NCBI GenBank assembly: GCA_023150835.1
Contig: JAKLKB010000065.1
Coordinates: forward strand, 1-48,837
Length of the DNA stretch: 48,837 bases
DNA from: Myxococcota bacterium
GTDB taxonomy: Bacteria; Myxococcota_C; UBA6777
Direction of reading: 5' to 3'
In this document: positions 514-17,062 of the stretch, piece after piece
Layout of the letters: every line of letters begins with the position of its first letter
Numbering within the stretch: position 1 is the stretch's first letter
The notes under the pieces: generated by a model
What the model was told of the DNA's origin: nothing
Databases searched by the model: none
The model's input: the letters and a program-made list of their open reading frames with translations, nothing else
Made by a program: the position numbers and the translations under genes

Positions 514-1050
514 GTGATGAAGTGGATAGCGCGGTGGTTGGGTGAGGATCGAGGGCAGTACGCAGAAGCCGAAGCGTTGTACCGCAGATATCATCCGATG
601 ATGCGGCGTCGTTGTCGGCGGATATTGCGAGATGAAGTGTTGGTGGATGATGCGATGCAAGAGAGTTTTTGGGCCTTGTGTCGGGGGTATGGGAGATTCC
701 AAGGGAATGAAGGCCAGTTGATGGCTTGGTTGTATCGGGTGACGACGAGCCATTGTTTGAAGGTGCTGGAGCGAGAACGTCGATGGGATCGGGTGGTGGA
801 AGCTGTTTGCGAAGAGAGAGCGATGTTTGGTTCGGATGTGGGGGAGTTTGAGTCGGATGTGGTGGTAAGAGAAGTCTTGTTGAAGCTGCCGCCGCTTCAG
901 AGAGAAGCGGTGTTGTATTGGTTGTTGGATGGGATGGCCCAAGAAGAGATCGCAGAGGTGATGGGAACGACACGGCATCAGGTAAGGCAGTGGCTGTCGT
1001 CCTTTGCGCAGAAAGCCAAGATCTGGATGGGATTGGAGGAGAGGGTATGA
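514..1050 (+). CDS. ECF (sigma-70 group 4) RNA polymerase sigma factor, module 1
   Basis: Region 2 (LYRRY..DDAMQESF..AWLYRVTTSHCL) and region 4 (LPPLQREAVLYWLLDGMAQEEIAEVMG) motifs; 178 aa; ATGA overlap with next gene. Confidence 0.9.
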   Translation: MMKWIARWLGEDRGQYAEAEALYRRYHPMMRRRCRRILRDEVLVDDAMQESFWALCRGYGRFQGNEGQLMAWLYRVTTSHCLKVLERERRWDRVVEAVCEERAMFGSDVGEFESDVVVREVLLKLPPLQREAVLYWLLDGMAQEEIAEVMGTTRHQVRQWLSSFAQKAKIWMGLEERV

Positions 1051-2108
1051 AAACAGAACGGATGGAACCTCCAGATGTGCGGCGAGGCCGAGAGCAGGGC
1101 GGTCACGGTAGGCTGTCGGAGTATCAGATGAGTCGGTATATGTTGGGCTTGATGAACGAGGGCGAACGATCGGCATTTGAGGTGATGTTGAAGATGGATG
1201 AGGCGGTGTGTGCGCAGTTTCAGCGTTTTCAGGCATCGTGGGAAGCCGAGAGATTTGATGAGCGACGCCATCGGATGCCTGTTTTTCCGGGTGCGTCAAG
1301 TATTCAAAATCGCCGTGTATGGGGGATCTTGCGTGCAAGCATGGCGGTCGCTGTCTTGGGGCTGGTATTGTGGGGGAGTCGATCGGTGTTTTGGATGCCG
1401 TTGGAGATGGGGCCACGGGTGCAAGGGTATCTCGTGGATGCGGGGAGAGATCTTGCGGATGCGAAGGATGCGAGGAATACGCCCGCTCCAGACACCATGA
1501 GAACGTCTGGTGTGGGAGCGGCGAAAAAGGCGAATGGTGTAGGGGCGAAGAAGAGCGAGCCGATGCGGACGAAAAAGGCGGAGGATGTAGGGGCGAAGAA
1601 GAGCGAGCCGATGCAGACGAAAAAGTCGGAGGATGTAGGGACAAAGAAGATCGGGCCGATGCGAACGAAAGGGAGTGTTGACCGCGTGTGGGCGAGTGGG
1701 ACGGAGCCGACGATGGTTGTGGCGTTGATGCGTGGAGGAAAGATCACGCAAGCGCGGTCGGGGCAGCATTTTTTGAAGGGGGATCGGCTGCGATTGGCAC
1801 ATCGGTGGGAACGGGGGGGGTATGTGTTTTGGGTGCATCGGCAAGGGAAGACGGTGACGCCGTTGTATCCGCGTGAGGGGAAGATGGAGAGCGTGCAAGT
1901 CGTCTCAGGGGAGATGATGTTGTTGCCGGGTTCTTTGGAGGTTTCGGGGGATGGCCGAGAGGAAGAGTGGTTGGTGGCTTGTTTTTCGCGGCGGCCTGTC
2001 TCTTTGGGGCGATTGCGAGCGGCCCTTGTGTCTTTGCCCAAAAAGATGGATCGTCATGCGTTGAGTGTGTGTGATCATCGTTTGCATTTTTTGGTGCGGA
2101 GAGAGTGA
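1047..2108 (+). CDS. Putative anti-sigma factor: N-terminal anti-sigma-like helix region, one TM helix, repeat linker, DUF4384-like C-terminal domain
   Basis: ATG 1047 overlaps the sigma stop (ATGA); LSEYQMSRYMLGLM..ERSAFE resembles degenerate zf-HC2 anti-sigma N-termini; TM ASMAVAVLGLVLWG; C-terminal GDRLRL..GYVFWV..LYP..LLPGSLEV..E motif pattern. Confidence 0.75.
   Translation: MKTERMEPPDVRRGREQGGHGRLSEYQMSRYMLGLMNEGERSAFEVMLKMDEAVCAQFQRFQASWEAERFDERRHRMPVFPGASSIQNRRVWGILRASMAVAVLGLVLWGSRSVFWMPLEMGPRVQGYLVDAGRDLADAKDARNTPAPDTMRTSGVGAAKKANGVGAKKSEPMRTKKAEDVGAKKSEPMQTKKSEDVGTKKIGPMRTKGSVDRVWASGTEPTMVVALMRGGKITQARSGQHFLKGDRLRLAHRWERGGYVFWVHRQGKTVTPLYPREGKMESVQVVSGEMMLLPGSLEVSGDGREEEWLVACFSRRPVSLGRLRAALVSLPKKMDRHALSVCDHRLHFLVRRE
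1523..1673 (+). repeat. In-frame 48-bp (16-aa) tandem repeat x3 in anti-sigma 1 linker
   Basis: KKAEDVGAKKSEPMRT-type units starting 1523, 1571, 1619. Confidence 0.9.
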
Positions 2109-4099
2109 TGGACCCGTGGCGTGCGCGGTTTGCATGGTGGAGAATGGGCTTCTTCCTGTGGTGTTGTGGAAGTGGAGGGCTTGTTCCCGACGTGCGACTT
2201 GCGGAGGCGTCCACGAAAGTTTCGGTGGTTCGGCGATTTGCGTTGTTGGTGGGTCAAGATGATGCAGGCGCACGTGCGCCAAGACTGCACTATGCGAGTC
2301 GGGATGCAGAAAAAATGCAAGAGCTTTTGATCTCGGTTTCAGGATTTCAGAAAGAAGATATCGTCTTACTTCGCCAGACACAGGCGCGGTCTGTGATGGC
2401 AGCGTTGGCGGGATTGCAGCGTCGGATCGCTCGGGTGCGTCGGGCGGAAAAGCACGCAGCGATCTGGTTGTTTGTGTATTATTCGGGGCATGTGAAACGA
2501 GACCGTTTGTTGTTGGGTCGCGGCAGCTTGGGATTTGCGCGGTTGCTTGGGATGATCCGAGGGATGGGGGCGGATCTACGTTTTGTGGTGGTGGATGCGT
2601 GTGAGTCAGGGGGGATGCTTCAAAAAGGCTTGACGTATCGGCGCGAAGGGTTTGCGGTGCCTTTTTTACAAGATCCGCAGATGACGCAGGGCGAGGTGAT
2701 CTTGACGGCGACAGGACAAAGCGAGCAAGCGCACGAAGATCCAACGCTCAAGGGTGGGATCTTTACACACTTCTTGATATCAGGCTTGCGCGGCGCTGCA
2801 GATCAAGATCGCGATCAGCGCGTGACGTTGGGGGAATTGTACCCGTATGTGTATCAGCGGGCTTTGCAACATTCGATGTTTTCGGTGCATGGACCGCAGC
2901 GGGCGCGTTTTGCACAAAGGCTTTCGGGGTACGGAGATCTTGTGTTGGCGCATCTTCGGGGGAGTCCAGCGCGTTTGACGGTCGAAAAAGGCGTTTCGGG
3001 GCGATTCTTTTTGTGGGACAAAAAACGCGAAAAGTTGTTTGCAGAGTGGACACACGGGCCAAAAGAATCGGCTCTCTCGGTGGCGCTGTCTGCAAAACAG
3101 TACATATTGGATTGGCGAAAAGGCACGTCATACAGTCGGATGGCGCTGGATTTACGGACCGAACGGCAGATCGTATTGAAAACCAAGACAGCAACGCATC
3201 TGGTCTGGCGTCCCGCACAAGAGTCGTCGACGGTGGCTTCGTTGGTGCGTTTTCCAAAAGAGTTGCAGGGTGACTTTGTGATCTGGGATCAGTTGCGCCA
3301 GCGGCCCTCTACGCGGGTTGCCAAACGCGCTGGCCATGCTGTTGTGTTGGAACTTCCCGCAGGAGCCTATCTGTTCGAGACACGAGGAACCCAAGGGGCG
3401 CGCCGTTATCCGTTGCGTTTGTCGACGGGGCAAGCGTTTGTGATCCCTGTAGATTGGGCTGTTGCAGAAGATACAGACGCAATCGGTGGAGAGGTTGTAC
3501 CGATGCGTTTGGAGAGGGAGGCTTTTTTAGGGCCGCGCAAGTCTTTTGGCGATCGGGAGCGGGATGGATTTTTAGTGCGATTGTACGAAGAAGTCTGGCG
3601 GCCACAAGCCGAGCAGATGCCGATGTGGGGGAGTGCGTTGGCTTGGTTAGAGGGGGAGGGATTGTTGTGGAGTGGGCGGCCTTTGGGGTGGACTCCGTTG
3701 GCTGGGTATTTGCGACTTCGCGGCGTGGTGGCCCCTGAGGCATCCATGCTTGCAGAGGCCGTTCCGATGGGTGGATACGAAGGGCAGATCGGGGCGATGT
3801 GGACGGTGTGGGAAGGCCGTTTTGCGGCGAGGGAGGGGGCAGAAGAAGGGCAGGTGCAGATCCATTTAGGCGGGTACATGGCCTTTTTACACGATCTTCG
3901 ACTGCGTGAAGCAGCAGGTCTATGGAGTGGGATCTCGTGGGGGATCGGGACAACGGCGCAGATCCATCTATCGGTGGCACGCCAACTTCGGTTGATCGGT
4001 TTGTTGGATTATCGGGGGTTGCGTGCAATCGAGGATCGCCGTTTGACTCGATGGCGCGGCGTGCTGTCTTTTTCGTTGGGATGGCTGCTGCATTTCTAG
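2105..4099 (+). CDS. Exported caspase-family (peptidase C14) protein with C-terminal beta-barrel-like domain, module 1
   Basis: RFALLVG..LHYASRDAEKM, YYSGH (His codon 2489) and VDACESG (Cys codon 2600) dyad; GGIFTHFLISGLRGAAD; signal-like N-terminus; ends with amphipathic strand and terminal F (SFSLGWLLHF); GTGA overlap with upstream stop. Confidence 0.88.
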   Translation: MMDPWRARFAWWRMGFFLWCCGSGGLVPDVRLAEASTKVSVVRRFALLVGQDDAGARAPRLHYASRDAEKMQELLISVSGFQKEDIVLLRQTQARSVMAALAGLQRRIARVRRAEKHAAIWLFVYYSGHVKRDRLLLGRGSLGFARLLGMIRGMGADLRFVVVDACESGGMLQKGLTYRREGFAVPFLQDPQMTQGEVILTATGQSEQAHEDPTLKGGIFTHFLISGLRGAADQDRDQRVTLGELYPYVYQRALQHSMFSVHGPQRARFAQRLSGYGDLVLAHLRGSPARLTVEKGVSGRFFLWDKKREKLFAEWTHGPKESALSVALSAKQYILDWRKGTSYSRMALDLRTERQIVLKTKTATHLVWRPAQESSTVASLVRFPKELQGDFVIWDQLRQRPSTRVAKRAGHAVVLELPAGAYLFETRGTQGARRYPLRLSTGQAFVIPVDWAVAEDTDAIGGEVVPMRLEREAFLGPRKSFGDRERDGFLVRLYEEVWRPQAEQMPMWGSALAWLEGEGLLWSGRPLGWTPLAGYLRLRGVVAPEASMLAEAVPMGGYEGQIGAMWTVWEGRFAAREGAEEGQVQIHLGGYMAFLHDLRLREAAGLWSGISWGIGTTAQIHLSVARQLRLIGLLDYRGLRAIEDRRLTRWRGVLSFSLGWLLHF

Positions 4100-4129
4100 G
4101 TCGTTCACGGCTTAAAACTTTTTTCTCTG

Positions 4130-4245
4130 TAGGACTTACGCAGTTCGATACGAAAAAGGCCCATGTTCGGGCGCGGGCGGTTCGCGAACCGCCCCTACAA
4201 CGGGTTGATTCTTCACGCTTTCCCTCTTCAACTGCGTAACTCCTA
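4130..4245. mobile_element. MITE family A copy (TIR TAGGACTTACGCAGTT / AACTGCGTAACTCCTA) with internal GTAG-type REP hairpin
   Basis: 15/16 matching terminal inverted repeat; internal GGGCGGTTCGCGAACCGCCCCTAC palindrome. Confidence 0.8.
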
Positions 4246-4252
4246 TCTCTGG

Positions 4253-4403
4253 TAGGGCTTACACGGTTGGATAATGTTTGGGGTTTCACCCCCACACCCC
4301 ACGAGAGGGCAAAGCCCTCTTGACCCCGTATTGGCGGGGCGAATAGAGGTTTTTCAAACCAACGACGTCGCCGCTTGGGCGTCCTCGAACGCGGGGGTTT
4401 TTT
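4253..4403 (-). mobile_element. MITE family A copy (twin-hairpin core)
   Basis: Reverse complement matches core AAAAACCCCCGCGTTCG..CAAGCG..TTGAAAA..ACGGGGTCAAG..GGGG..CCCCA; TAGGGCTTACACGGTT end. Confidence 0.75.
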
Positions 4404-4497
4404 CTTCATCGTCATCTCTTAGATGAGCGTAGGCAGTTTTTTCTCTAGCTAAGTTTTTTATTCTTTTACATATTTCTTCTTTGGATGGGAGGCTAGA

Positions 4498-5082
4498 ATG
4501 CGGGTTCGAACCTTTGGTGGATGGGTGCGTTTGGGCGCGTGGTGTGGTGTTTGTTGGGTGGTTATGGGGGTCGCAACGCAGGCGAATGCTTCGGATGCAA
4601 GGCGGTTTGCAGAAAAACTGCATCGAGAGAAGCTGCATTATGGATTCAACAAGGAGGGGAAAGTGGCTTTGCTCAAAGGGGACAAAGAAGCGCATCTGGG
4701 CGTGTTGGGTTCGGGCTATCACAGTTTGTTTCAAGGTTCCGAAGTGGCGCAAAAAGCGGGAAGTCAGGCCCATGCGATGGCGATCAGTGCGACGATCTTG
4801 TCGATCTTGGGCATCGCTGCAAGTGCGACAGGGGCCGCGATCTTTGCGGTTGATCCACAAGGCTTTTTGCCTGAACATCGGCCCGCTCGGGCTGTGTTAA
4901 ATGCCTCGCTTTTGTTTGGTGGTTTGGCCTTGTTGTATGGGTCGATGCTGCTCAACATCCAAGCACAAGAAAAAACCTATTTTGCGATTAAAGCGTACAA
5001 TCGGGATTTAGAGAAAAAGGCGCTGCGCGAATGGAAGCCACACAAACCCCCTCACGGACATCGGCTGTTTCGGGCTGATTGA
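4498..5082 (+). CDS. Hypothetical exported/membrane protein
   Basis: GGGAGG SD then ATG; signal-peptide-like N-terminus (..ATQANA); two hydrophobic helices. Confidence 0.65.
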   Translation: MRVRTFGGWVRLGAWCGVCWVVMGVATQANASDARRFAEKLHREKLHYGFNKEGKVALLKGDKEAHLGVLGSGYHSLFQGSEVAQKAGSQAHAMAISATILSILGIAASATGAAIFAVDPQGFLPEHRPARAVLNASLLFGGLALLYGSMLLNIQAQEKTYFAIKAYNRDLEKKALREWKPHKPPHGHRLFRAD

Positions 5083-5155
5083 TTTGTTTTTCGATCGAGG
5101 GGGGCGGTGAACAGTAGCGCATCGGCTGTTTCGGGCCGATTGATTTGTTTTCGAT
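5059..5155. repeat. ~37-bp direct repeat (period 61) duplicating the 3' end and stop of the 4498 gene
   Basis: CATCGGCTGTTTCGGGC(T/C)GATTGATTTGTTTT at 5059 and 5120. Confidence 0.9.
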
Positions 5156-5159
5156 GCTG

Positions 5160-5325
5160 TAGGAATGATGCAGTTGGCAGCCCCCGTGTTCGTGGACTTT
5201 CAAGCGACAGGGTCGTTGTTTTGAAAAACCGTGATCTCTTCGCCAACACGGGGTCAAGGGAGCCGCGCTAAGGAGGCGGGGCGTGGGGTGCCAACCCACA
5301 AAACCATCGAACTGCGCAAGTCCTA
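5160..5325 (+). mobile_element. MITE family A copy
   Basis: TAGGAATGATGCAGTT ... AACTGCGCAAGTCCTA termini enclosing the conserved core. Confidence 0.8.
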
Positions 5326-5384
5326 TGTTCAAACAAGACCAGCGGCAGCGAAAAATGGAGCGAAAAAAAGAAGGAGACAGCGTC

Positions 5385-5981
5385 GTGGATGTGGTGGAAG
5401 AAAAGAAGCGTTTGCGGGTTGCGTACCAAGCGAGGAGATCGCAGTTAGAGAGGGAGTGGGTTGCACAAGCAAGCGGCAGGATCAGCGATCAAGTCGTTGG
5501 TTTGGGGCTTTTGGAGGGTGCGCGTTGCGTGGGGGGATTTTGGCCGATCGGGCATGAAGTGGATCTGCGGCCAGCATTGGAGCATTTGGAGGCGCGGGGG
5601 GTGGTGATCGGTTTGCCGGTAGTGGTGGGGCCGCGCCGTCCGTTGTGTTTTCGGCGTTGGACGCCACAGACACCGATGCAGCGGGCTGTTTTTGATGTAA
5701 TGATCCCGACCGAAGCAGCCGATGTCTGTGTTCCAGATGCGCTGTTGGTGCCGTTGTTGGCGTTTGATCGAAAAGGGTACCGTTTGGGGTACGGTGCGGG
5801 TTATTATGATCGAACGTTGGAGGCGATGCGCGCCCAAGGTCCGCTCTTGACGGTAGGAGTCGCTTACTCTATGCAAGAGCATCCAAGTTTGCCTGCCGAT
5901 GGGGGTGATCAGCCGTTGGACTGGGTGTTGACAGAGCAAGGCTTGTTGTGTACGAGCGGCAAGGCAGGGGAACGCCCGTGA
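5385..5981 (+). CDS. ygfA: 5-formyltetrahydrofolate cyclo-ligase
   Basis: EKKRLR..RR N-terminus; LLVPLLAFDRKGYRLGYGAGYYDRTL; DQPLDWVLTE; GTG start chosen 8 nt after AAGGAG (ATG 5355 is an alternative). Confidence 0.92.
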   Translation: MDVVEEKKRLRVAYQARRSQLEREWVAQASGRISDQVVGLGLLEGARCVGGFWPIGHEVDLRPALEHLEARGVVIGLPVVVGPRRPLCFRRWTPQTPMQRAVFDVMIPTEAADVCVPDALLVPLLAFDRKGYRLGYGAGYYDRTLEAMRAQGPLLTVGVAYSMQEHPSLPADGGDQPLDWVLTEQGLLCTSGKAGERP

Positions 5982-6011
5982 GATGGCTCGGATGGTGCGA
6001 AGGAGCGTAAG

Positions 6012-6917
6012 GTGACGCAAGAGAAGATTCGGGAAAATGTGTTGGATGAGCTGTTGATGTTGCTGAATCTGGAGAAGATTGAAGAAAATATCTTTCGAGG
6101 GCGCAGCCAAGATCTGGGGTTTGGAAATATCTTTGGGGGGCAGGTTTTGGGACAAGCGTTGTCTGCGGCGCTCCAGACGGTTCCCAAAGATCGGCGCGTA
6201 CACAGCCTGCATGGGTATTTTTTGAGACCGGGAGATCCCGCGATGTCCATCGTGTACGAAGTGGACTGTATCCGCGATGGCAAGAGCTTTACGACCCGTC
6301 GTGTGGTGGCGATCCAAAAAGGGCAAGCGATCTTTTCGATGTCATCGTCTTTTCAGGTCGAAGAATCGGGCTTTGAGCATCAAGACACACCGCCAGAAGT
6401 CGTCGGACCCGAAGGGCTCGAATCGTGGTTGGACTGGGCGCGTGGCATGGAAGATCGTATCCCCCCAAATATCCGGCCCAAACTGCTGTGTGAACGCCCG
6501 ATCGAGATCCGAGTGGTCAATCCTGTGAACCCCTTCAATCCGAGGAAACAACCTCCTGTACGTTATTCTTGGTTTCGCGCCATCCACCCCATGCCTGACG
6601 ATCCTGTGATCCATCGCTACATGTTGGCGTACGCTTCGGACTTTGGTCTGGTTTCGGCCTCGCTGTATCCACACGGCCACACCTATTGGGAACCCGATAT
6701 GCAGGTGACCAGCCTCGATCATGCGATGTGGTTTCATCGAGAGTTTCGGATGGATGAATGGTTGTTGTACGTCACGCAAAGCCCCTCTGCCAGCGGGGCG
6801 CGTGGCTTGAACTTTGGCAAGATCTACCAACACGGCCAACTGGTCGCCTCGACCGCTCAAGAAGGTCTGATCCGCTACCGTGGGAATGAGAGCAGCCGCT
6901 CTTCTCAATCCCCCTAA
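6012..6917 (+). CDS. tesB: Acyl-CoA thioesterase II
   Basis: FGGQVLGQAL, HSLHGYFLRPG, RDGKSFTTRRV, LAYASD, SLDHAMWFH, QEGLIR motifs; AAGGAG SD. Confidence 0.95.
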   Translation: MTQEKIRENVLDELLMLLNLEKIEENIFRGRSQDLGFGNIFGGQVLGQALSAALQTVPKDRRVHSLHGYFLRPGDPAMSIVYEVDCIRDGKSFTTRRVVAIQKGQAIFSMSSSFQVEESGFEHQDTPPEVVGPEGLESWLDWARGMEDRIPPNIRPKLLCERPIEIRVVNPVNPFNPRKQPPVRYSWFRAIHPMPDDPVIHRYMLAYASDFGLVSASLYPHGHTYWEPDMQVTSLDHAMWFHREFRMDEWLLYVTQSPSASGARGLNFGKIYQHGQLVASTAQEGLIRYRGNESSRSSQSP

Positions 6918-7028
6918 TACGATCTCCGAGTGATGTGTACACGAAGGGTCGTGCGTAGGTGCCCTGTTATCGGGCAGCCACAGGGGGCTGCCCCTACATC
7001 TTTACGCTCACAACGGGCGGATCTCGTA
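6918..7028. mobile_element. MITE family B copy (TIR ~TACGAGATCCGC) with GTAG-type hairpin
   Basis: TACGATCTCCG ... CGGATCTCGTA termini; GGGCAGCCACAGGGGGCTGCCCCTAC; inserted right after the tesB stop. Confidence 0.75.
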
Positions 7029-7183
7029 TAACCCATATCGCCCTTGCGGTCGAACTCGGCGAAGTATCCGAGCAGCCGCTCTTCCCAACCCCCCTAACCC
7101 CGCCGCTTTTCGTCTGCACTCCCTCCTGTTTTTTTACAATTATTCACCCGCTTTTTTTCGCAAGTACACTCTTCAGTACAGAG

Positions 7184-7350
7184 AGGAGTTGCGCGGATGC
7201 CAAAAAGGCCGTGTTCGTGGCACCCCAAGCGAGAGGGCCGTTTGTTTTTAAAACGCCTGCTCGTTTCGCCGATACGGGGTCAAGGGGACGCAGTTCCCTT
7301 GTGGGGCGTGGGGTGAAACCCCACACAACAGATCCAACCGCGTCGCTCCC
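7184..7350 (+). mobile_element. MITE family A copy upstream of sigma 2
   Basis: AAAAAGGCCGTGTTCG..CAAGCG..ACGGGGTCAAGGGGACGCAGTTCCCTTG..TGGGGTGAAACCCCACA; degenerate TIRs. Confidence 0.75.
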
Positions 7351-7402
7351 GATCGATGCACAACGCAGATCCCCAACAACGTGTGGCAGGTGGTGTTTGG
7401 GA

Positions 7403-7912
7403 ATGGATGAGCAAGTAGTTTTTGATGATCTCGTTCGGACATATACGGATCGTGTGCGTGGTTATTTTTGGCATGCGTGGCGGCTTTCGGAAGCGGATGT
7501 AGACGAACTCACCCAAGAAGCTTTTTTGGAAGTGTGGCGTGCTTTGCCCGGTTTTCGGTCGGAATGTAGCGTGTTGTGGTGGATCTTGCGGATATGCCGT
7601 CGGATGGCATGGCGGTATGTCAGAAGGCAGCAGATCCGCAGCTTTTTTGGGCTGCGCTCCAACGCACCGCTTGAACATGAGGCGGCGGACGAACGGTTGG
7701 GCGCAACCCTTGAAGCGCGCAGCGAGATTCGCGCTTTGATCTCCGCGATGAAGAGGCTTACTGCTACCGATCGCGAGTTAATTTACCTGCACTACGTCGA
7801 AGACTTGAAGGAACCCGAGATGGCCGAGATATTGGAGATCAACAGACACACGCTTCACACGCGACTCAACCACGCAAGGAGGCGCTTGCATCGGCTCTTT
7901 AGAGCATCCTAA
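7403..7912 (+). CDS. ECF RNA polymerase sigma factor, module 2
   Basis: FDDLVRTY..DELTQEAFLEVWRALPGFRSECS..WILRI; region 4 LTATDRELIYLHYVEDLKEPEMAEILEIN..TRLNHARRRL; ATG 7403 (upstream ORF extension runs through MITEs). Confidence 0.9.
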   Translation: MDEQVVFDDLVRTYTDRVRGYFWHAWRLSEADVDELTQEAFLEVWRALPGFRSECSVLWWILRICRRMAWRYVRRQQIRSFFGLRSNAPLEHEAADERLGATLEARSEIRALISAMKRLTATDRELIYLHYVEDLKEPEMAEILEINRHTLHTRLNHARRRLHRLFRAS

Positions 7913-8017
7913 GAGTGAGCGGTTGGGTCGTTCCTATCACCGCAAAAAGTGATCGTGATCAGGCACGACGCGCCAGTTGAGATGGACAGCTTCACAAAGA
8001 AGCCTTGGGTAGGGAAG

Positions 8018-9010
8018 ATGATCGTGGTCAAAAAACAAGACGAAACAGAAGATGTAAATACCTCGAAAGAATCTGAGTTCTCGGATTTTTTGAGAGAGGC
8101 GATGCAAGACCCAGCTTTCGGTGTCCCTCGGCCCTCCGCAGATCTGCAACAACGGCTGCGTGCCATTCCACAACAACACCCCCGATCTGCCCCGCGTTCT
8201 CGCACGATGTGGGCGGCATTGTTTCCGATCGCAGGAGTGGCCGCTGTGTTGGTGTTCCTTTTCATTGGGCAACCGCCGATCGACCCGATCTCCTCGACTC
8301 CTTCGATGCTTCCTCCACCGATCCCCCCGCCAACACAACGCATCTCCCATCCGTCGGTCGTAAGGCGCGATACGCTCCCCACGCTGCGCAGAGTCGAGCC
8401 GCCCGTAGCTCGACGCGACACACCACCAACATTGCGTAGAGTCGAGCCGCCTGTCGTTCGGCGTGATACACCACCAACGTTGCGTAGAGTCGAGCCGCCT
8501 GTGTTGCGTCGCATGGCGGCTTCTCCTTCGGGACTTGTCGCCAAAGGCACCTTATGGGAGCCCTTGTACGCTCACCAACGAGGAGCAGGACTGCCTAGAC
8601 AATCGAGGGTCTTGCGCAATGGTGTGGTCTTGTACCCCGGCGATCTTGTCCAGTGGACCTACAAGATCAGCGCGCCTGTCTATGTTTTTTTGGTGGGAAT
8701 GAACCGAGAAGGCGAGATCTATCCGCTGTTGCCGCAGCCTCCCGAACCATCTGCCATCCGTCTCGAACGCCTCCAAGGCTCGCTACCCCAAGCGGACGGA
8801 GAAGCACGCGCCTTCCGCTTGGATCACTACGTCGGTGCCGAGCGTTTCTTTGTGTTCCAATCCTCGAAGCCCTTCTCTTTTCAAGAAGTAAAAAGAGAGT
8901 TGCTTTCTGCTTGGGAGATTAGTCAGAAAAAGATAGAAAAGATGGTTCTTGTCTCCACTGTTTGGTCGATCTATACTGTGTACTTTGTCAAAAAAGCACG
9001 CGAAGATTGA
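8018..9010 (+). CDS. Putative anti-sigma factor with TM helix, Pro/Arg repeat linker and DUF4384-like domain
   Basis: Directly after sigma 2; TM WAALFPIAGVAAVLVFLFIG; C-terminal LYPGDLVQW..VYVFLVG..GEIYPLLP..FRLDHYVGAERFFVFQSSKP; start uncertain (7949/7982/8018). Confidence 0.78.
   Translation: MIVVKKQDETEDVNTSKESEFSDFLREAMQDPAFGVPRPSADLQQRLRAIPQQHPRSAPRSRTMWAALFPIAGVAAVLVFLFIGQPPIDPISSTPSMLPPPIPPPTQRISHPSVVRRDTLPTLRRVEPPVARRDTPPTLRRVEPPVVRRDTPPTLRRVEPPVLRRMAASPSGLVAKGTLWEPLYAHQRGAGLPRQSRVLRNGVVLYPGDLVQWTYKISAPVYVFLVGMNREGEIYPLLPQPPEPSAIRLERLQGSLPQADGEARAFRLDHYVGAERFFVFQSSKPFSFQEVKRELLSAWEISQKKIEKMVLVSTVWSIYTVYFVKKARED
8356..8512 (+). repeat. In-frame 48-bp (16-aa) repeat x3 in anti-sigma 2 linker
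   Basis: RRDTPPTLRRVEPPVV-type units, diverged mostly at synonymous sites. Confidence 0.9.
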
Positions 9011-9037
9011 TCGAAAAAACAGTAGAGAGCATCTAAA

Positions 9038-10846
9038 ATGGGAAGAGCAAGCAGCCGTCGGGATGTCAAACGAGCGTTGAAGTGCGTTTCTCTTGTGATC
9101 TTTGGGACTCTTTTGTGGGGAGCACAGGCCGAAGCTTCGACCGATCGAAGCGCCGAGGCAGACCAGCACAAAAAGCCCCGAACCAACAGCAATCCCAACA
9201 AACATCACAAGGGGCGCGATGTTCGCTTGGCGCTGGTGATCGCCAACGAACACGGATGGGGAGCCGAGCCGCGCCTTGCTTATGCTGTCAAAGGTGATCT
9301 TCGTCGGATGCGTGATGCTTTGCGGCATCTGGGCTTTTTTTTACCCCCTGCTTTGGTGTTGGGAAACCAAGATCCTCAAGCCATCCGTACTGCTTTTGCG
9401 ACTGTCAAGCGTTTGATTCAAGAAAAAGGCGTGACCACGTTTTTCTTTTATTATAGTGGCCATGCCGACAAAAACCACCTTCACACAGGGCCTCCACCGA
9501 TGTCTTGGGGGAGCGCATCTCCGCTTACGCCAGACCCCAAAGCCCCGATCTCTTACGCAGAGTTTGCTTCCTTTCTACAAGACTTGCGGATCCCAAGGCG
9601 CTTTGCATTGATCGATGCTTGCTATAGCGGCATGATCGCCAAGCATTTTGGTAACGCTGTGAACTTTCGCCGCGCCATCGCGCAACAACAACTCCCCAAA
9701 GGCGTCGAGCCGATCTTTGTGTCGGCGGATCTCAAAAAGTACCTACATCAAAACGATCCCAACGCGCAAACCATCCATATCCTTGCATCGACCGCAGATG
9801 ATCAACTCGCCTTTGAATCCCAAAAGCTGAAAGGATCGATCTTTACACATCATTTTTTGCGTGGACTCGCAGGGCGCGCAGAACGCGGCAACAAAGGGAC
9901 GATCTCCATGGACGATCTCGCCAACTATGTGCGTCCCCTTGTGGCCCGCGACACTCACGGGCAAACGCCCACCGAATGGAAGCTTCATCAAGGCCGCGAT
10001 GCCTACGCCTTGGCTGCCACGTATAAAAGCATCCTTGAGATCCCGACAGCCCTCCAAGGACGTTTCAAAGTCCTGATCGGTGACGCCCAAATTTCGTGGA
10101 ATACCGCGCAACGCACGGTTGCGAAACTGCCTGTGGTCGTAGGAAAAGGCATCTTGTTCCACCAAGACGCAAAGACCAAACGCTGTCGCTCGTATGCGTT
10201 GGAGGTCGCCCCTTCGCAACGGATCGAGCTTCTACCCGCGCTTTGGCAGGAGATCCCCTGCCATCAAATAGGTGTGGGAGCCAAAGGAGAGCCGATCTTG
10301 CCCATGCACTTGATGGAACAGGCCGACCTGACAGAAGATTGGAGCCTCGAATTGCAGGGCGGCATGTGGGGCAGCAACGGTTTGTTTAAACTTCCAGAAG
10401 GCGATCGGATGGGGATGTTGTCGGTGGGGATGCGTTGGCGCTATGCAGCGATCTCGGTGGGCACGGGGCTTGGACCTGTGTCGTTTCTGCAACAAGACGG
10501 AACCTCGAAGGCTTTTTGGCAGAACTGGTTGAACCTACGCGGTGAAGGCGGATATCGCCATCAGTGGGATCGCCTCGACTTGTTTGTCGGGGCGTATCTT
10601 GGGGTGGGCGTGTTGCTGCATGATCTCAATGAACAAGCGATCCCGTCCTTTTCTGTTCAAGGCGGGCTGTTATGCCAATTGGGGATCTGGTTGGATCAGC
10701 GATGGGCGCTGTTGGTCTCCGCAGAAGGTGGCGGGCATCCTGCCTTTGTGCAAGAAGCGCAACATCGCGTGTTTCGGTTCTTTGCGACCTACAGCCTGCG
10801 CGTGGGCGTTCGCTTTCGCTTTGGCCCCAACCGCTTACTGTTTTGA
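9038..10846 (+). CDS. Exported caspase-family (peptidase C14) protein with C-terminal beta-barrel-like domain, module 2
   Basis: Signal peptide ..LLWGAQAEA; RLALVIAN, FYYSGHAD (His 9461), LIDACYSG (Cys 9620), GSIFTHHFLRGLAG; C-terminal amphipathic strands (YSLRVGVRFRF). Confidence 0.88.
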   Translation: MGRASSRRDVKRALKCVSLVIFGTLLWGAQAEASTDRSAEADQHKKPRTNSNPNKHHKGRDVRLALVIANEHGWGAEPRLAYAVKGDLRRMRDALRHLGFFLPPALVLGNQDPQAIRTAFATVKRLIQEKGVTTFFFYYSGHADKNHLHTGPPPMSWGSASPLTPDPKAPISYAEFASFLQDLRIPRRFALIDACYSGMIAKHFGNAVNFRRAIAQQQLPKGVEPIFVSADLKKYLHQNDPNAQTIHILASTADDQLAFESQKLKGSIFTHHFLRGLAGRAERGNKGTISMDDLANYVRPLVARDTHGQTPTEWKLHQGRDAYALAATYKSILEIPTALQGRFKVLIGDAQISWNTAQRTVAKLPVVVGKGILFHQDAKTKRCRSYALEVAPSQRIELLPALWQEIPCHQIGVGAKGEPILPMHLMEQADLTEDWSLELQGGMWGSNGLFKLPEGDRMGMLSVGMRWRYAAISVGTGLGPVSFLQQDGTSKAFWQNWLNLRGEGGYRHQWDRLDLFVGAYLGVGVLLHDLNEQAIPSFSVQGGLLCQLGIWLDQRWALLVSAEGGGHPAFVQEAQHRVFRFFATYSLRVGVRFRFGPNRLLF

Positions 10847-10904
10847 GCCCTTTTTCTTCCCATGCCGTTGCCACGGGCGGCTTTCTCTTCTCGCTCCTTG
10901 ACCT

Positions 10905-12240: not shown

Positions 12241-12395
12241 GTGGTTTCGCGGATGATCGTCATGCAAGAGTTGCATCCATACAGACAACCGGCGAGAAAC
12301 AAAAAGTGGTTTCGCGGATGATCGTCATGCAAGAGTCGCATCCATACAGACAACCAGCGAGAAACAAAAAGTGGCTTCGCGAATGATCGTCATGG
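12241..12395. repeat. 65-bp tandem repeat x2.4 overlapping the stop of the 12390 gene
   Basis: GTGGTTTCGCGGATGATCGTCATG.. at 12241, 12306, 12371. Confidence 0.9.
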
Positions 12396-14174
12396 CAAAA
12401 GCCTTTCGGTGTGAAGGAGAAAGACGACGGTTTGAGTCGGGTTGTTTTGCGGCGTAGGGAAGCGAGAGTCTGCCCAAACAAGTGTAGGGGAGTTTGTGGT
12501 TCCTGAGAGAACAAAGCTGCCGTCGGGTTGAGCGAGCAAGCGCCCTTGGGCGGTCTGTGTGTGGGATCCGTGCAAGGTTCGGAAACTACGCCAGCGGCCT
12601 TGTGGATCGAGTGTTGCGAGGAAGATATCGCGGTTGCTTTGGGCTTTGTGATTGGGCGATATCGCAGCGGGGAGTTGGATATCACCTTGGAAATCACCCA
12701 AAAGAGCGATACCTTGGGAGGTTTGTGCAAGACTTTGTAGGCGTACGGCTGAAGTGGCGGTGGTGGCGGTGAGCTGTTGTGTCCATTGAAGTTTGCCTTG
12801 TGTATCCCAATGGGCGATGAATCCGCTGTCTTGGGGGGAAGAAAACAAGGAGAGATGTTCGGAAGAGAACAGTTCGCCCCGGTAGGTTCCGGCCAAGAAA
12901 ACCCCTGATGTTGCGGCATAAAGCGCTTGTGGGATCTCATCGCCTGAGACAGCATAGAAAAGATCGGCCCAGACAGGATGCCCATCGGATCGGACGTGCA
13001 TGATATAGGGATCTTGTCCGTCTGTCATGGCGCGTAGTCCGGCGCTTTTGATGGAGGGTGCAGGGAGCGTCAAGTAAAAGCGATGGGTGATGTAGAGGTT
13101 GTGCGAGGGAGGAGAGGCGGCTGTTTGAGCGAGAGCGATCTTTGGGAGGAGGAACCCTTGGGTCGCGCTTCCGTAGGCCAACGTCCAACGGTCTCGGCCA
13201 TCAAGGTCAAGCCGCGAGAGAAAGTCGGCCCCTTGATACACCGAAGGAGATGGCGTGCTGTAGAGGCGACCATCAAAAAGCAGGAGATCTTTTCCATAGA
13301 ATTGTCCGGCGACATAGAAGGCATCGCTTTCTGCGATCGCAAGGGCGCTTGCGAGGACATCACCCTCTCCGCCTGCCGAACGCGCCCACAGGACATCACC
13401 GTCTTCGTTGAGGCGCATCAGAAAACTGCTGATGCCTTTGTGCTTGGGCAGGCGATGGTTGCCGAGCGTAAGCACCGCGCTGGTGTACGTTCCGAGTAGA
13501 TAGATCCCTGCTTGTGGATGAATGGCGATGGATGTAAGGGCTTCGTCGCCTTCGGCTCCCCATACCTTGACCCATCGTGCCGAGCCTGTGGGTGAAAGGC
13601 GCAACAAAAAAGCTTGGCGGCGGTTGGCTGCTGTGTCAGTCACGGAAAGCCCCGCTAGTTCGGCTTGATCGGCATGAAGCCACCCACCGACGAGAAGGTC
13701 TCCGTTTGGGTGGCGTTGTTGATCGGTGATGGCGATGGCTTGATCGGCTCGGAAAAAGCGTATCCATGGGAGATTGGAGGGGGGTTGTTCTGCGCCGGAT
13801 TCGTGGACTGGTTCGGGGGTGTGTTCTGTGGATGAAGGTTCCGAAGATGTGGACTCTTGGGGGATTTCCGCAGGGTCATCTAGGGTGGTTTCTGGGAGCG
13901 GGAACTCGGAGGTTTCGGATGTGGAGGCATCGGACAGATCAGGTGGTAACGGCTCAGCGGAGTTGGGAGAGCGTAAGCAGAGGCCGCGAAAGCAAGAAAA
14001 TCCGTTGGTGCATTGGCGGTTTGAGCGGCATTGACCGCTTTGATTGATGCAGCCCGCCAAAGCGAACCAAGCGAGCAACGCGAGGAGGAAAAAGTGACTT
14101 GTTGATAAAAAGCCTGTGGATCTGTTCTTCGTGAAAAAGGACTGCGAGAGGAGGAAGACGTGACTTGTTGACAA
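12390..14174 (-). CDS. Putative lipoprotein: Cys-rich N-terminal module plus beta-propeller
   Basis: LLAWFALAGC lipobox; CRSNRQCTNGFSCFRGLC; repeated blades (AFLLRLSPTGSARW, FLMRLNEDGDVLWA, DIFLATLDPQGRW); start uncertain (TTG 14174 chosen because the longer ORF runs through a MITE). Confidence 0.75.
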   Translation of the reverse strand: MSTSHVFLLSQSFFTKNRSTGFLSTSHFFLLALLAWFALAGCINQSGQCRSNRQCTNGFSCFRGLCLRSPNSAEPLPPDLSDASTSETSEFPLPETTLDDPAEIPQESTSSEPSSTEHTPEPVHESGAEQPPSNLPWIRFFRADQAIAITDQQRHPNGDLLVGGWLHADQAELAGLSVTDTAANRRQAFLLRLSPTGSARWVKVWGAEGDEALTSIAIHPQAGIYLLGTYTSAVLTLGNHRLPKHKGISSFLMRLNEDGDVLWARSAGGEGDVLASALAIAESDAFYVAGQFYGKDLLLFDGRLYSTPSPSVYQGADFLSRLDLDGRDRWTLAYGSATQGFLLPKIALAQTAASPPSHNLYITHRFYLTLPAPSIKSAGLRAMTDGQDPYIMHVRSDGHPVWADLFYAVSGDEIPQALYAATSGVFLAGTYRGELFSSEHLSLFSSPQDSGFIAHWDTQGKLQWTQQLTATTATSAVRLQSLAQTSQGIALLGDFQGDIQLPAAISPNHKAQSNRDIFLATLDPQGRWRSFRTLHGSHTQTAQGRLLAQPDGSFVLSGTTNSPTLVWADSRFPTPQNNPTQTVVFLLHTERLLP

Positions 14175-14300
14175 AAAGCCCGCGTTCGTACGAGCACAAG
14201 CGACAGGATCGTTGGTTTGAAAAACCGTGATCTGTTCGCCCCTCACGGGGTCAAGGGGCGAACGTCCCTTGTGGGGTTTGGGGCAACGCCCCACAAAAAT
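14173..14300 (+). mobile_element. MITE family A core between divergent lipoprotein genes
   Basis: AAAAAGCCCGCGTTCG..CAAGCGACAGGATCGTTGGTTTGAAAA..ACGGGGTCAAGGGGCGAACGTCCCTTG..TGGGGCAACGCCCCACA. Confidence 0.75.
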
Positions 14301-14416
14301 AACCCCAGCAAATCGTATCGTTCGAGAGAGAACAAAAAAAAATGCACCCATGCTTTCCAACACACGACACTTTTGGTTAGAGTAGTCTCTCTGCCTTAAA
14401 GATGGAGTACAGCGAG

Positions 14417-17062
14417 ATGTGGAGAAAAAGTACAAGAGCGCTCGGACGAAAGAAAGGGCGGTGTACTTTCTGGTTTGTTATGTTCTTGGGAAGCTTACTG
14501 TTTTCTTGTGAAGACCGCGAACTGCCGTGTTCTTTTTTGGGGAACGTATGCGACGAGTCGCGTCTTTGCGTGATGGGGCAGATCTGTTCGTGTGGTGTGT
14601 GCGTATCCTGCCCGTCGATGGGGAGTATTTGTCGTAGCGACCAAGGTTGCGAAGCGTCCGAGCAATGCGTGTGCGGGGCGTGCGTAGGGCGAAAAGGAAG
14701 AGAAAAGCAGGAACCCACCACACAAGAGAACACAGCCGATCGTTCAGAAAACACGGCAGAGGGGGGAACACAAGAGCAAGGGGCTGAGGACCACAGCGAA
14801 TCACGGATGATCGAGTCAGAGGCTATTTCGGAGGTGACGAGAGAAAAAGGGCGAGTGCGTGTGATCGCGGTGGTGGTGGGTTTGCGCGGAGTTGGGATCG
14901 GGAAGGTGGTTGTGCGGGTTGGGTGGAGCGGAGGGCAGCAGAAGAGAGCAGCGGATCTGTCCGAAGAACGAGGGACTTGGAGTGCGGTGGTGGAGGGGGT
15001 GTCCGAGGCGGAGGCGTTGGCGGTGCAGGCGGAGGCGCTGGACGCGGAGGGGCGGGTGGTGGCGAGCGTGGAGGTGGGAGGGGCAAAAGTCCGAGAGGGT
15101 CAAGAGGGAGTGTGGTGGTTGTGTTTGCGGCCTGCGATGGGGGAGATGCGAGCAGTGAACCGAGCGCCACGTTTGTGGGGGGTGTGGGTCGATCGCGCCG
15201 AAGCCAAAGGTGGCGAATCGATCGAGTTGCGCGTGTGGGCTTCGGATGATGCGCAAGAAAGAGTGCGTGTGTTGTGGGAGGCGGATGTGGGGGAGGTCAA
15301 GGCGCTTGCGGAAGATCACTTTCGTTGGGAGATGGCTGCGACAGTACAGGCCGCGAAGGTTCGGTTGTTGCTGCGTGTGCTGGATGATCGGCAAGGGAAG
15401 ACGGTCGCCTCGGTGCATCTTCCTGTGTTTCGTGCCGGATTGACCGAGAAGATGGTATTTTTGCGTGGGCCGACTTTGCACAACGCACGGGCGATTCGGC
15501 ACCGACTGCAACCTGCGATGACCACGGGGTTTGAGGTCGGTATCGAAGAAGGAGATGGCGGTGCGTTGCGTTATCGTTGGTCAGATGGTGGGGGCGTATG
15601 TGCGGGGCGTTTTGACCATGCCGAGCGAGCATTGCCGCAGTGGACGGCTCCGTCGCAAAAACCCACGCAAGATCGGTGTGTGCTGGTGTTGCAGATCGAA
15701 GATCAAGCGGGCCATACGCTCGAAGAGACGGTCGAAGTGGGGTTTGTCGGGGATACTTGGGCGCTGGGGCTTGCGCGCAACCAGAGTTTGCAACATGCGC
15801 GGATGGCGCGGACCAAGGACGGCGATCTGGTGGTGGTGGGCTGTTATTTGGGGAGAATGGATGTGGCGGGATTGCGTTTGTTGGATGAGACGGGGGTGGA
15901 TGTGAACTTTGTGGCGCGGGTGGATGAGCATGGGAGTGTGCGGTGGCTGTTGGGCATTCGAGGGAAGGGCAGACAGACGATCCGAGCGGTGGCAGCGGCT
16001 CCGGATGGCGATATCGTGTTATGGGGCCATTATACGGGGATGTTGGAGATCGAAGGCCAACAAGTGACATCGGTGGGGCGTGCGGATCTATTTTTGGCGA
16101 GGCTTCGTGGAGACGGAAGTGTTCGATTTATTCGGACGTTTGGGAGTGCGCAAGATGAAGATGCAGGAGGGCTTGCGATCGATGCGGAAGGGACGGTGTA
16201 TGTGTCGGGGTCGTTTGGGGGAACGATCCAGTTGGGTGCGTTTCGGCGGTTGTTGGTGGGGTGGGTGGATGGCTTTGTGGGGGCGATGACGGCGGAGGGG
16301 ACGTGGCTTTGGGTGCATACGATCAACGCGCGCTTTGTGTACATCCGCACGTTGCAGGTGACTGCGCAAAAGCAAGTGTGGGCGGGTGGGATGTTCCAAG
16401 CGGAGGCGACGTTGGGGACGATCAAACTACCTTATAAAGGCACCGAGTATCGGGGAGTTGTGGCGCGGATCGATCCGCAACAGGGATGGGCGGAAGCTGA
16501 GGCGTTTGGAGAAGTGGGGATCCTTGATCCGTTGTTTTGGGTGACGGAGACGGGAGAGTGGGTGTTGTGTGGGCAGTTCAAAGATCGCCTTGTCTTGGGC
16601 GATCTGGTGAGAGAGCGTCCCCATTCGGATCGTCACTTTTTCTTGGCGTTACGTGGTGCAGATCGCCGATGGAGATGGGTACGAACCTTGGCTGAGAAAG
16701 AAAGCGAAGAGGCGATCAATCGGGGAGTTTGCTCGGCTTTGTACGAAGAGAGCGGACAGATCTATGCGTTTGTTGGGACGCCTGCGCATACGACGATCAT
16801 GGGAGACTTTGTGTGTGCCGAGCAAGGCTGCGGAGGAGGGACGTGGCAGCGTTTGGATCGAGACGGTAAGTGGCTGGAGGTCGAGTGCGGAAGCGCGACA
16901 GAGTCGGGTCCGCCCGGGACGGCGATGGCTTTTTCAAAGGCCTCTTGGTTTACGGTGATGTCGTTGTCTGTTCCTGCGTATTTTTGTGGGGGAGGGCCGT
17001 CTGCGTATCCGCTTGGGATCACGCTACGCAAACGCCCACGTATCCTACCTTTGGGGCCTTGA
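14417..17062 (+). CDS. Large putative lipoprotein: Cys-rich N-terminus, Ig-like domains, C-terminal beta-propeller
   Basis: LGSLLFSC lipobox; ~13 Cys cluster; NRAP..ASDDAQ Ig-like segment; blades DLFLARLRGDGSVRF, DAEGTVYVSGSF, DGFVGAMTAEGTWLW; GGAG SD. Confidence 0.78.
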   Translation: MWRKSTRALGRKKGRCTFWFVMFLGSLLFSCEDRELPCSFLGNVCDESRLCVMGQICSCGVCVSCPSMGSICRSDQGCEASEQCVCGACVGRKGREKQEPTTQENTADRSENTAEGGTQEQGAEDHSESRMIESEAISEVTREKGRVRVIAVVVGLRGVGIGKVVVRVGWSGGQQKRAADLSEERGTWSAVVEGVSEAEALAVQAEALDAEGRVVASVEVGGAKVREGQEGVWWLCLRPAMGEMRAVNRAPRLWGVWVDRAEAKGGESIELRVWASDDAQERVRVLWEADVGEVKALAEDHFRWEMAATVQAAKVRLLLRVLDDRQGKTVASVHLPVFRAGLTEKMVFLRGPTLHNARAIRHRLQPAMTTGFEVGIEEGDGGALRYRWSDGGGVCAGRFDHAERALPQWTAPSQKPTQDRCVLVLQIEDQAGHTLEETVEVGFVGDTWALGLARNQSLQHARMARTKDGDLVVVGCYLGRMDVAGLRLLDETGVDVNFVARVDEHGSVRWLLGIRGKGRQTIRAVAAAPDGDIVLWGHYTGMLEIEGQQVTSVGRADLFLARLRGDGSVRFIRTFGSAQDEDAGGLAIDAEGTVYVSGSFGGTIQLGAFRRLLVGWVDGFVGAMTAEGTWLWVHTINARFVYIRTLQVTAQKQVWAGGMFQAEATLGTIKLPYKGTEYRGVVARIDPQQGWAEAEAFGEVGILDPLFWVTETGEWVLCGQFKDRLVLGDLVRERPHSDRHFFLALRGADRRWRWVRTLAEKESEEAINRGVCSALYEESGQIYAFVGTPAHTTIMGDFVCAEQGCGGGTWQRLDRDGKWLEVECGSATESGPPGTAMAFSKASWFTVMSLSVPAYFCGGGPSAYPLGITLRKRPRILPLGP

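Follow-up and report, generated by a model that had tools for sequence, protein, structure and literature searches.

Known routes of sigma factor release

In the RpoE/RseA/DegS/RseP pathway, a sigma factor of the extracytoplasmic function (ECF) type is held by a single-pass anti-sigma factor, which is cut in the periplasm near the membrane (site 1) by DegS, an inner-membrane serine protease activated by the C-termini of outer membrane proteins, and then by an M50-type site-2 protease. FecA/FecR/FecI is a trans-envelope relay formed by an outer-membrane transporter, an inner-membrane anti-sigma factor and an ECF sigma factor. Here we describe two three-gene units in a 48,837-nucleotide contig of a Myxococcota bacterium (JAKLKB010000065.1, GenBank assembly GCA_023150835.1; this whole stretch is called the window below), each made of an ECF sigma factor, a single-pass membrane protein resembling an anti-sigma factor and an exported protease of the Peptidase_C14 family whose His-Cys dyad is intact. 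These triads appear to be a widely conserved variant of anti-sigma regulated proteolysis, undescribed as far as the literature was searched, in which the caspase relative may itself act as the site-1 protease.

As in RpoE/RseA, the sigma factor would be held by a single-pass anti-sigma factor, and M50/RseP-type genes are found in the same genome. The candidate site-1 enzyme differs, being a clan CD cysteine protease encoded in the same operon and predicted to be anchored in the outer membrane. The likeness to FecA/FecR/FecI is functional only: the outer-membrane component is here a protease and not a transporter, and Pfam matched no TonB-dependent transducer, FecR or STN family in the six module proteins. 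The original prediction, which had cast the triad as an analogue of FecA/FecR/FecI, stands in its predicted anatomy (ECF sigma, single-pass anti-sigma with a periplasmic DUF4384-type domain, exported caspase with an OmpA-like barrel) and as a functional parallel, not as a kinship of families.

The nearest published system is DdvS/DdvA of Myxococcus xanthus, an ECF sigma factor with a single-pass anti-sigma carrying a periplasmic TPR-CHAT caspase-fold domain, for which trans-autoproteolysis before RseP has been proposed (PMC11506125). Both cases combine a myxobacterial ECF sigma and a single-pass anti-sigma with a periplasmic caspase-fold His-Cys domain and a flexible linker beside the membrane helix. 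In DdvA, however, the TPR-CHAT part is fused to the anti-sigma and, following the same text, would act in trans within a dimer, whereas here the protease is a separate, metacaspase-like Peptidase_C14 protein with a barrel of its own (PMC11506125). The anti-sigma bears instead a small DUF4384-type domain, Pfam found neither TPR nor CHAT in the middle proteins of the window, and the triads lie outside any island of cyclic-oligonucleotide-based anti-phage signalling systems (CBASS) or clustered regularly interspaced short palindromic repeats (CRISPR), unlike DdvS/DdvA as portrayed there. The triad had been called uncharacterised at the outset; no description of it was found, but a periplasmic caspase-fold anti-sigma had already been published in DdvA.

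In type III-E Craspase, Csx29 (TPR-CHAT) cuts Csx30, and the C-terminal domains of some Csx30 proteins are DUF4384 (bioRxiv 10.1101/2022.08.17.504292). The set Csx29/Csx30/Csx31/RpoE thus resembles the triads in directing a caspase-fold protease against a protein that keeps an ECF-type sigma factor bound, and in DUF4384. Craspase is nonetheless cytoplasmic, RNA-guided and CRISPR-linked and relies on a CHAT protease, whereas here the protease belongs to C14, is predicted to be periplasmic and has no CRISPR near it. The best sequence matches among solved structures are metacaspases and orthocaspases (MEROPS C14B; AtMC4, 6w8s; Yca1, 4f6o; GSU0716, 3bij), which have the dyad and both acidic positions of a putative pocket in common with the triad proteases. 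No metacaspase or orthocaspase carrying an immunoglobulin (Ig)-like domain and an OmpA-like barrel, or encoded with a sigma/anti-sigma pair, was found in the literature searched.

For the ECF54 group, a review names CHAT, subtilase and carboxypeptidase genes as neighbours, with no anti-sigma (PMC8999054). In its main text, the paper that re-classified the ECF factors (Casas-Pastor 2021) mentions neither caspase nor C14, CHAT, DUF4384 or peptidase; the per-group neighbourhoods in its supplements may bear on novelty. Full-text literature searches found no description of an operon of ECF sigma, DUF4384 anti-sigma and C14 caspase.

Two triads in the window

Both units lie on the + strand, module 1 at 514-4099 and module 2 at 7403-10846 of the window (open reading frame (ORF) listing, translation and Pfam). 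The same gene order thus occurs twice, as first predicted, in copies that have little in common: identity between modules is 18% for the sigma factors, 20% for the middle proteins and 25% over 243 residues for the proteases. Two other details read from the letters hold as well, namely the start/stop overlaps of module 1 (ATGA at 1047-1050, GTGA at 2105-2108) and the C14 dyad motifs YYSGH and DAC, found in protease 1 (H129/C166) and in protease 2 (H142/C195) alike. The genes of module 2 do not overlap and are separated by gaps of 36 and 27 nt.

Sigma factor 1 (514-1050, +, 178 aa) matches Sigma70_r2 at 5.9e-12, Sigma70_r4_2 at 5.9e-10 and TIGR02937 at 5.6e-20. Its start, GTG 514 or ATG 517, is uncertain because a tandem repeat at 467-546 (32 nt x 2.4) spans the start codon and partly duplicates the 5' end of the gene; a second repeat lies further upstream at 204-275 (21 nt x 3.4, 100% identity). 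Sigma factor 2 (7403-7912, +, 169 aa from ATG 7403) matches Sigma70_r4_2 at 6.4e-11, Sigma70_r2 at 1.7e-8 and TIGR02937 at 2.6e-22; its open frame extends back to 6959, and this extension has no sigma similarity. Both proteins therefore contain regions 2 and 4, as ECF (group 4) sigma-70 factors require, with no Sigma70 region 3 match listed by Pfam for either. Their TIGR02937 scores are 71.6 and 79.2 bits (cut-off 42.9), and no NCBIfam equivalog reached its cut-off.

The sigma genes are followed by the anti-sigma-like membrane proteins 1 (1047-2108, +) and 2 (7949-9010, +), both of 353 aa, and these by the exported C14 proteases 1 (2105-4099, +, 664 aa) and 2 (9038-10846, +, 602 aa). A terminator-like hairpin lies on the + strand right after module 1 (4097-4114) and another after module 2 (10864-10881), both from a consensus scan only.

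Spread of the triad

The window is contig C234 of a 7.56-Mb assembly of 239 contigs. Profile searches of this genome returned 11 Peptidase_C14 matches, 10 DUF4384 matches (E<=1) and about 35 Sigma70_r4_2 matches (E<=0.01). Seven triads were identified, two in the window and the others on contigs C113, C225, C75, C205 and C231, the last being a divergent variant. Seven of the 12 caspase genes directly adjoin a sigma gene, which lies upstream in the same operon in six cases and is divergent in one. Given only about 35 sigma region 4 matches in 7.56 Mb, this pairing is more than chance would produce. When 30 of the genome's sigma genes were placed in a quickly built tree, which has many long branches, the seven triad sigmas fell into two groups (2 label changes; the mean after shuffling is 6.4, and 0 of 500 shuffles were as low).

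Two of these triads have proteases of a particular kind. The one on C205 (locus L016, 3152-4840, +) has a lipobox, LLAGC, and a barrel-like C-terminus; it was missed by the PF00656 search of the genome and matches by hmmscan at 1.7e-14. In the C231 variant (L015, C231:16000-24500), the protease (2649-4565, -) is transcribed divergently from the sigma (4374-4976, +) and the anti-sigma (5148-6395, +), and ends in a hydrophobic helix and a Pro-rich tail, with no barrel. A similar divergent layout occurs in two of 80 related loci (L032, L082).

The five remaining caspase genes, on C203 and C182, have no sigma gene; two are caspase-DUF4384 fusions and two have, by eye, an FGE-sulfatase-like tail. 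Four of them lie at C203:23070-34045 (L001, L002, L004, L010): two DUF4384 fusions, one protein with an FGE-sulfatase-like C-terminus and one with C-terminal membrane helices. Interleaved with this cluster are an OmpA-C-like protein and two DUF4384 proteins that stand alone, secreted or as lipoproteins.

A scan with the protease alignment over one genome per GTDB species gave 560 confirmed relatives, of which the best 80 loci were kept; their six-frame ORFs were searched with hidden Markov models built from the seven sigmas and the seven anti-sigma C-terminal parts of this genome. Among these best 80 of 560, a sigma and a DUF4384-type gene stand upstream of the protease in the same strand and order in 60 loci (DUF4384-type gene in 62, sigma in 64), and 14 of the 80 have under 2.5 kb of upstream sequence. 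Nearly all come from Myxococcota or "Deltaproteobacteria" metagenome-assembled genomes, and among them are Sorangium sp. So ce375, Pyxidicoccus fallax DSM 14698 and Archangium gephyra SDU49, so that the expectation of similar triads in other myxobacteria is borne out. In the 48 of 59 triads covered by the junction counts, the 4-nt start/stop overlap recurs at 19 of 48 sigma/anti-sigma junctions and at 18 of 47 anti-sigma/protease junctions. The two modules are operons of three genes, complete in themselves.

The exported protease

The protease alignment comprises 75 sequences: six from this genome, five from a word-based search and 64 of 150 listed cluster-representative matches, picked by eye for end-to-end coverage. 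The catalytic His and Cys (H142 and C195 in protease 2) are invariant in all 75, and both window proteases score above the cut-off of PF00656 (3.1e-9 for protease 1, 1.3e-14 for protease 2). In protease 1, H129 lies at nt 2489 and C166 at nt 2600; in protease 2, H142 lies at nt 9461 and C195 at nt 9620. The nearest solved structures by sequence are AtMC4 (6w8s, 2.4e-11), a yeast-type metacaspase-1/Yca1-type (4.4e-11) and GSU0716 (3bij, 5.1e-7), with caspase-1 at about 4e-4. Asp87 and Asp193 of protease 2, kept in 72 and 73 of the 75 sequences, align with the metacaspase ND and DSC positions, which we take to line an S1 pocket that binds Arg or Lys. With such an acidic pocket, cleavage after Lys or Arg would be expected.

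The AlphaFold2 model of protease 2, computed from the 75-sequence alignment (mean pLDDT 83.4, pTM 0.70; Foldseek was run on it), contains a signal helix (aa 7-31), a caspase domain (aa 63-306, nt 9224-9955), an Ig-like beta-sandwich (aa 312-397, nt 9971-10228) and eight long strands that form a barrel (aa 436-594, nt 10343-10819), the latter with pLDDT mostly above 85; residues 33-57 and 218-238 are disordered. Against the PDB, Foldseek places the OmpA transmembrane domain first (2.0e-9 and 7.1e-9), with NspA at TMt 0.70, and then MALT1 caspase-Ig3 (1.4e-8), caspases, legumain and metacaspase 9. An eight-stranded barrel has both of its ends in the periplasm. For this reason the protease domain is predicted to lie in the periplasm, tethered to the outer membrane.

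Protease 1 has a longer middle region and a barrel-like C-terminal domain ending in LLHF. Its C-terminus alone gave Prob 7% against the barrel profile, but when its subfamily (14 sequences) was compared with the barrel of the other subfamily (36 sequences, no common rows) the match reached Prob 99.2% and E 7e-20, with 37% for the reversed control. The barrel of protease 1 is thus predicted from a subfamily profile-profile match. Both window proteases end in Phe; the last residue is Phe, Tyr or Trp in 29 of the 75 sequences, and 67 have an aromatic one among their last six. By a crude pattern, the N-terminus is signal-like in 63 of 75. The signal-peptide-like N-termini noted at the outset are upheld by hydropathy and by the helix of the model, whereas the barrel-like C-termini are supported by structure comparison for protease 2 and by the subfamily profile for protease 1.

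A profile search of 1.84 billion cluster representatives returned 2,967 relatives of the protease at E<=1e-30, many of them 500-580 aa long and matching from end to end. Word-based searches gave 14 relatives for protease 2 and nine for the anti-sigma profile, the latter all without an informative name. Five exactly matching public proteins are called "hypothetical protein", "DUF4384 domain-containing protein" or "caspase family protein".

The anti-sigma-like membrane protein

In both modules the gene of the middle protein lies directly downstream of its sigma gene and the product has a single membrane helix, the two features expected of an anti-sigma factor. The family was studied in an alignment of 55 middle proteins (A3), seven from this genome and 48 from related loci. 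One strongly hydrophobic segment is present in all 55 (hydropathy), a complete HxxxCxxC zinc-binding anti-sigma (ZAS) motif in 30, many with an extra upstream Cys, a zf-HC2 match in 19 and a DUF4384 match in 37 (E<=0.01). These frequencies identify the family as class I (ZAS-type) anti-sigma factors with a periplasmic DUF4384-type domain. The ZAS motif is degenerate in the copy of module 1 and absent in that of module 2, and neither matched zf-HC2 in Pfam. The two window anti-sigmas are zinc-less, repeat-expanded members of a paralogous set of seven.

Their kinship with DUF4384 differs in kind. The copy of module 2 has a weak Pfam match to PF14326 (9.1e-5, 22.9 bits against a cut-off of 27), whereas the module 1 protein has no Pfam match of its own and joins the family through alignment with 54 relatives, with a weak NCBIfam anti-sigma match (0.0014) besides. 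The label "DUF4384-like", given to both in the original prediction, is thus weakly supported by Pfam for module 2 and follows for module 1 only from the alignment.

For copy 2, AlphaFold2 (pLDDT 70.5) predicts a pair of short helices (aa 36-53 and 64-72), a membrane helix (aa 92-106 in the model; aa 89-107, nt 8213-8269, by hydropathy), about 95 disordered residues and a confident DUF4384-type domain, a beta-sandwich with one helix, at aa 202-348 (nt 8552-8992). A Foldseek search with this model returned nothing at E<=1e-3, only weak Ig-like and RhoGDI rows. The short N-terminal helices are predicted to lie in the cytoplasm and the DUF4384-type domain in the periplasm. Copy 1 has, by hydropathy and alignment, the same succession of a membrane helix (aa 91-109, nt 1317-1373), a linker of 16-aa repeats and a C-terminal DUF4384-type domain.

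Both linkers are built of 48-nt (16-residue) tandem repeats detected by TRF, with 3.2 copies at 1518-1670 (+) in anti-sigma 1, where they encode a Lys/Arg-rich segment, and 2.5 copies at 8381-8502 (+) in anti-sigma 2, where the segment is Arg-rich. The two repeats are mutually unrelated in sequence, and the linkers contain 21 and 16 Lys or Arg residues. In the predicted topology, these expanded linkers shift the DUF4384 domain far from the inner membrane and towards a partner tethered to the outer membrane.

A candidate cleavage site

What could a protease with an acidic pocket recognise in the anti-sigma factor? In alignment A3, one position is Lys (49) or Arg (4) in 53 of the 55 proteins and is followed by Gly in 51, while Arg stands two residues before it, at P3, in 31. 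The motif in the anti-sigmas is thus K-G, often R-x-K-G. It lies at a median of 17 residues past the membrane helix (range 8-101 in the 55 proteins), which suggests that a cut at K-G would typically leave a short stub of the kind that site-2 proteases accept. In five of the seven anti-sigmas of this genome the distance is 58, 76, 83, 93 and 101 residues, against the family median of 17. The window copies have the motif at K208-G209 (nt 1668-1673) and K199-G200 (nt 8543-8548); in the model of copy 2 it falls where the disordered linker ends, two residues ahead of the first strand of the folded domain.

The proteases have a similar motif 8-26 residues after the catalytic Cys, in a loop modelled with low confidence, with Lys in 71, Gly in 74 and a P3 Arg in 27 of the 75 sequences (K174-G175, nt 2624, in protease 1; K221-G222, nt 9698, in protease 2). 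In caspases, the inter-subunit loop lies at this place. In the mainstream myxobacterial triads the protease reads TRxK-GG and the anti-sigma xRxK-GG, the hyphen marking the candidate bond, and in one pair the six residues are identical. Across cognate pairs the P3 Arg is associated between the two proteins, with counts of 25/10/6/2 in 43 pairs (Fisher p 1.9e-4) and of 28/15/7/3 in 53 pairs.

Proposed mechanism and alternatives

We give an even chance to a mechanism in which the caspase cuts its cognate anti-sigma at (R)xK-G, an RseP-type protease clears the stub and the sigma factor is freed. The protease would hang in the periplasm from its OmpA-like barrel by way of the Ig-like domain. An envelope cue would activate it there, and it would cut the conserved (R)-x-K-G at the boundary of linker and DUF4384 domain (site 1). 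The RseP-type site-2 protease would then remove the stub on the membrane helix and release the sigma factor from its putative complex with the anti-sigma, possibly to act on its own operon as well as on a regulon. The seven divergent paralogous triads would work as parallel, insulated channels. The idea of a site-1 protease, already part of the original prediction, is strengthened by the juxtamembrane R-x-K-G, by a pocket of the metacaspase (Lys/Arg) type and by the RseP-type genes of the genome, all of them features read from sequence. The conserved operon and dyad, the predicted folds, the caspase-DUF4384 fusions of this genome, the precedent of DdvA and the DUF4384 domains of some Csx30 proteins also speak in favour of the mechanism.

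Several observations weigh against this mechanism. The geometry is awkward, with the protease tied to the outer membrane and the motif typically some 17 residues from the inner membrane; in the window copies, conversely, the stubs left by a cut at K-G would measure 93 and 101 residues, which is long for RseP if no further trimming takes place. The K-G of the proteases aligns with the T-K-G of a yeast-type metacaspase-1 (7qp0), so that it may be an inherited feature of the fold and not an autoprocessing site. The association of the P3 Arg is lost in a phylogenetically independent test, which has five independent pairs and is underpowered (median sign-test p 0.63). The two window anti-sigmas have no intact ZAS motif, and we therefore infer their binding to the sigma factors from position and family only. 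A scan for the pattern GAAC-N14-19-CGT found no ECF-type promoter shared upstream of the seven triad sigma genes. A prediction of the complex between protease 2 (aa 58-400) and anti-sigma 2 (aa 185-353), run with alignments and no controls, gave a score of 0.01 (mark 0.32) and carries no weight either way.

It is possible, though unlikely, that binding rather than cleavage controls the sigma factor. The DUF4384 domain of the anti-sigma would dock on the caspase or on its Ig-like domain and serve there to inhibit, chaperone or monitor the protease, and an altered contact would free the sigma, for instance when the protease engages other substrates or leaves the outer membrane; its real substrates would then be other envelope proteins. 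DUF4384 does recur in this genome with caspases that have no sigma, in the two fusions and as stand-alone proteins beside the caspases of C203. The possible fold origin of the protease K-G points the same way, and in Kato et al. (bioRxiv 10.1101/2022.08.17.504292) DUF4384 is described as often fused to protease domains. The best-conserved feature of the anti-sigma outside its folded domain is, however, a Lys/Arg-Gly in a disordered juxtamembrane segment, a place more in keeping with a cleavage site than with a docking surface, and the catalytic dyad is kept in every one of the 75 relatives.

Alternatively, the protease may be a mere co-expressed output of a sigma/anti-sigma pair that responds to an unrelated signal in the envelope; the site-1 cut would then fall to a different protease, DegS/PrsW-like or of another kind, and the caspase would remodel or degrade envelope or foreign proteins. 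This too we consider doubtful. Membership in one operon proves co-expression and not interaction, the genome holds many other proteases, and no common promoter or regulon could be defined. A co-expressed output would nevertheless leave unaccounted for the strict three-gene unit, which persists despite the very low identity of the paralogues and in the same order in three quarters of the 80 loci, with start/stop overlaps common, and the Lys/Arg-Gly motif that suits a metacaspase-type pocket.

It is highly improbable that the triad is an anti-phage or programmed-cell-death module, with the caspase as suicide or defence effector and the sigma inducing defence genes, as the co-occurrence of caspase-fold proteases and ECF sigma/anti-sigma pairs in CRISPR-linked systems (compare Csx29/Csx30/RpoE and the DdvS island) and the DUF4384 domains of some Csx30 proteins might suggest, since the neighbours are housekeeping genes, no CRISPR-like array was found among the tandem repeats of the window and the predicted place of the protease is the periplasm, on an outer-membrane tether, and not the cytoplasm.

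Cleavage at K-G by the caspase could also be gated by distance, an elaboration that we regard as distinctly improbable. The triads would then be trans-envelope proximity sensors, in which the outer-membrane caspase reaches K-G only when membranes or proteins are close and the length of the linker sets the threshold. Expansion of the 48-nt minisatellites would have lengthened the linker from the usual ~17 to 58-101 residues in five of the seven paralogues, retuning its reach and adding further Lys/Arg sites. The expansions may merely reflect a genome-wide tendency, as the whole window is unusually dense in near-perfect tandem repeats. If the proximity idea were true, the triads would together make up a family of sigma switches, gated by caspases, that gauge the geometry or integrity of the envelope.

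Other features of the window

The modules are separated by genes for a 5-formyltetrahydrofolate cyclo-ligase, an acyl-CoA thioesterase and a small membrane protein. Elsewhere the window consists of ordinary chromosomal genes, including an amidase, a transporter and a tRNA synthetase. Directly after module 1, an ORF at 4498-5082 (+) encodes a protein of 194 aa, signal-like at its N-terminus and with hydrophobic segments towards its C-terminus, which matched no Pfam or NCBIfam family and has no counterpart after module 2. Two further large ORFs, of 681 aa (12390-14435, -) and 886 aa (14402-17062, +), had no Pfam match at E<=1e-4; by eye, the product of the former looks like a secreted repeat or beta-propeller-like protein. 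The 1165-aa product of 36164-39661 (+) joins a Ser/Thr protein kinase to a PQQ/BamB-like beta-propeller, a kind of fusion typical of myxobacteria.

TRF lists 33 rows in the 48.8 kb, with periods of 8-158 nt and many repeats 90-100% identical, both within and between genes; examples are found at 18001-18184 (75 nt x 2.5), 21694-22015 (72 nt x 4.5), 39817-40016 (39 nt x 5.1) and 45693-45893 (13 nt x 15.7). Whole units repeat with no unique spacers, so none looks like a CRISPR array, in agreement with the absence of CRISPR stated at the outset. GC skew of the + strand, in 2-kb windows, is very strong and mostly positive, reaching 0.39 at 1-2000 and 0.41 at 30001-32000, in DNA of about 55% G+C. 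This skew is not simply a matter of gene orientation, because it persists where large ORFs lie on the - strand.

Significance

Bacterial caspase relatives are abundant, as the cluster representatives retrieved here illustrate, and yet they are almost without defined physiological substrates. The operon offers a testable protease-substrate pair, with a candidate scissile bond and a transcriptional read-out, and orthogonal sets of sigma, anti-sigma and protease could become parts for synthetic circuits. If the proposed cleavage is true, a clan CD cysteine protease anchored in the outer membrane would join the few site-1 proteases of ECF signalling, and the idea put forward for DdvA would extend beyond a single fused protein to a large family of split systems, of which one myxobacterial genome may hold as many as seven.

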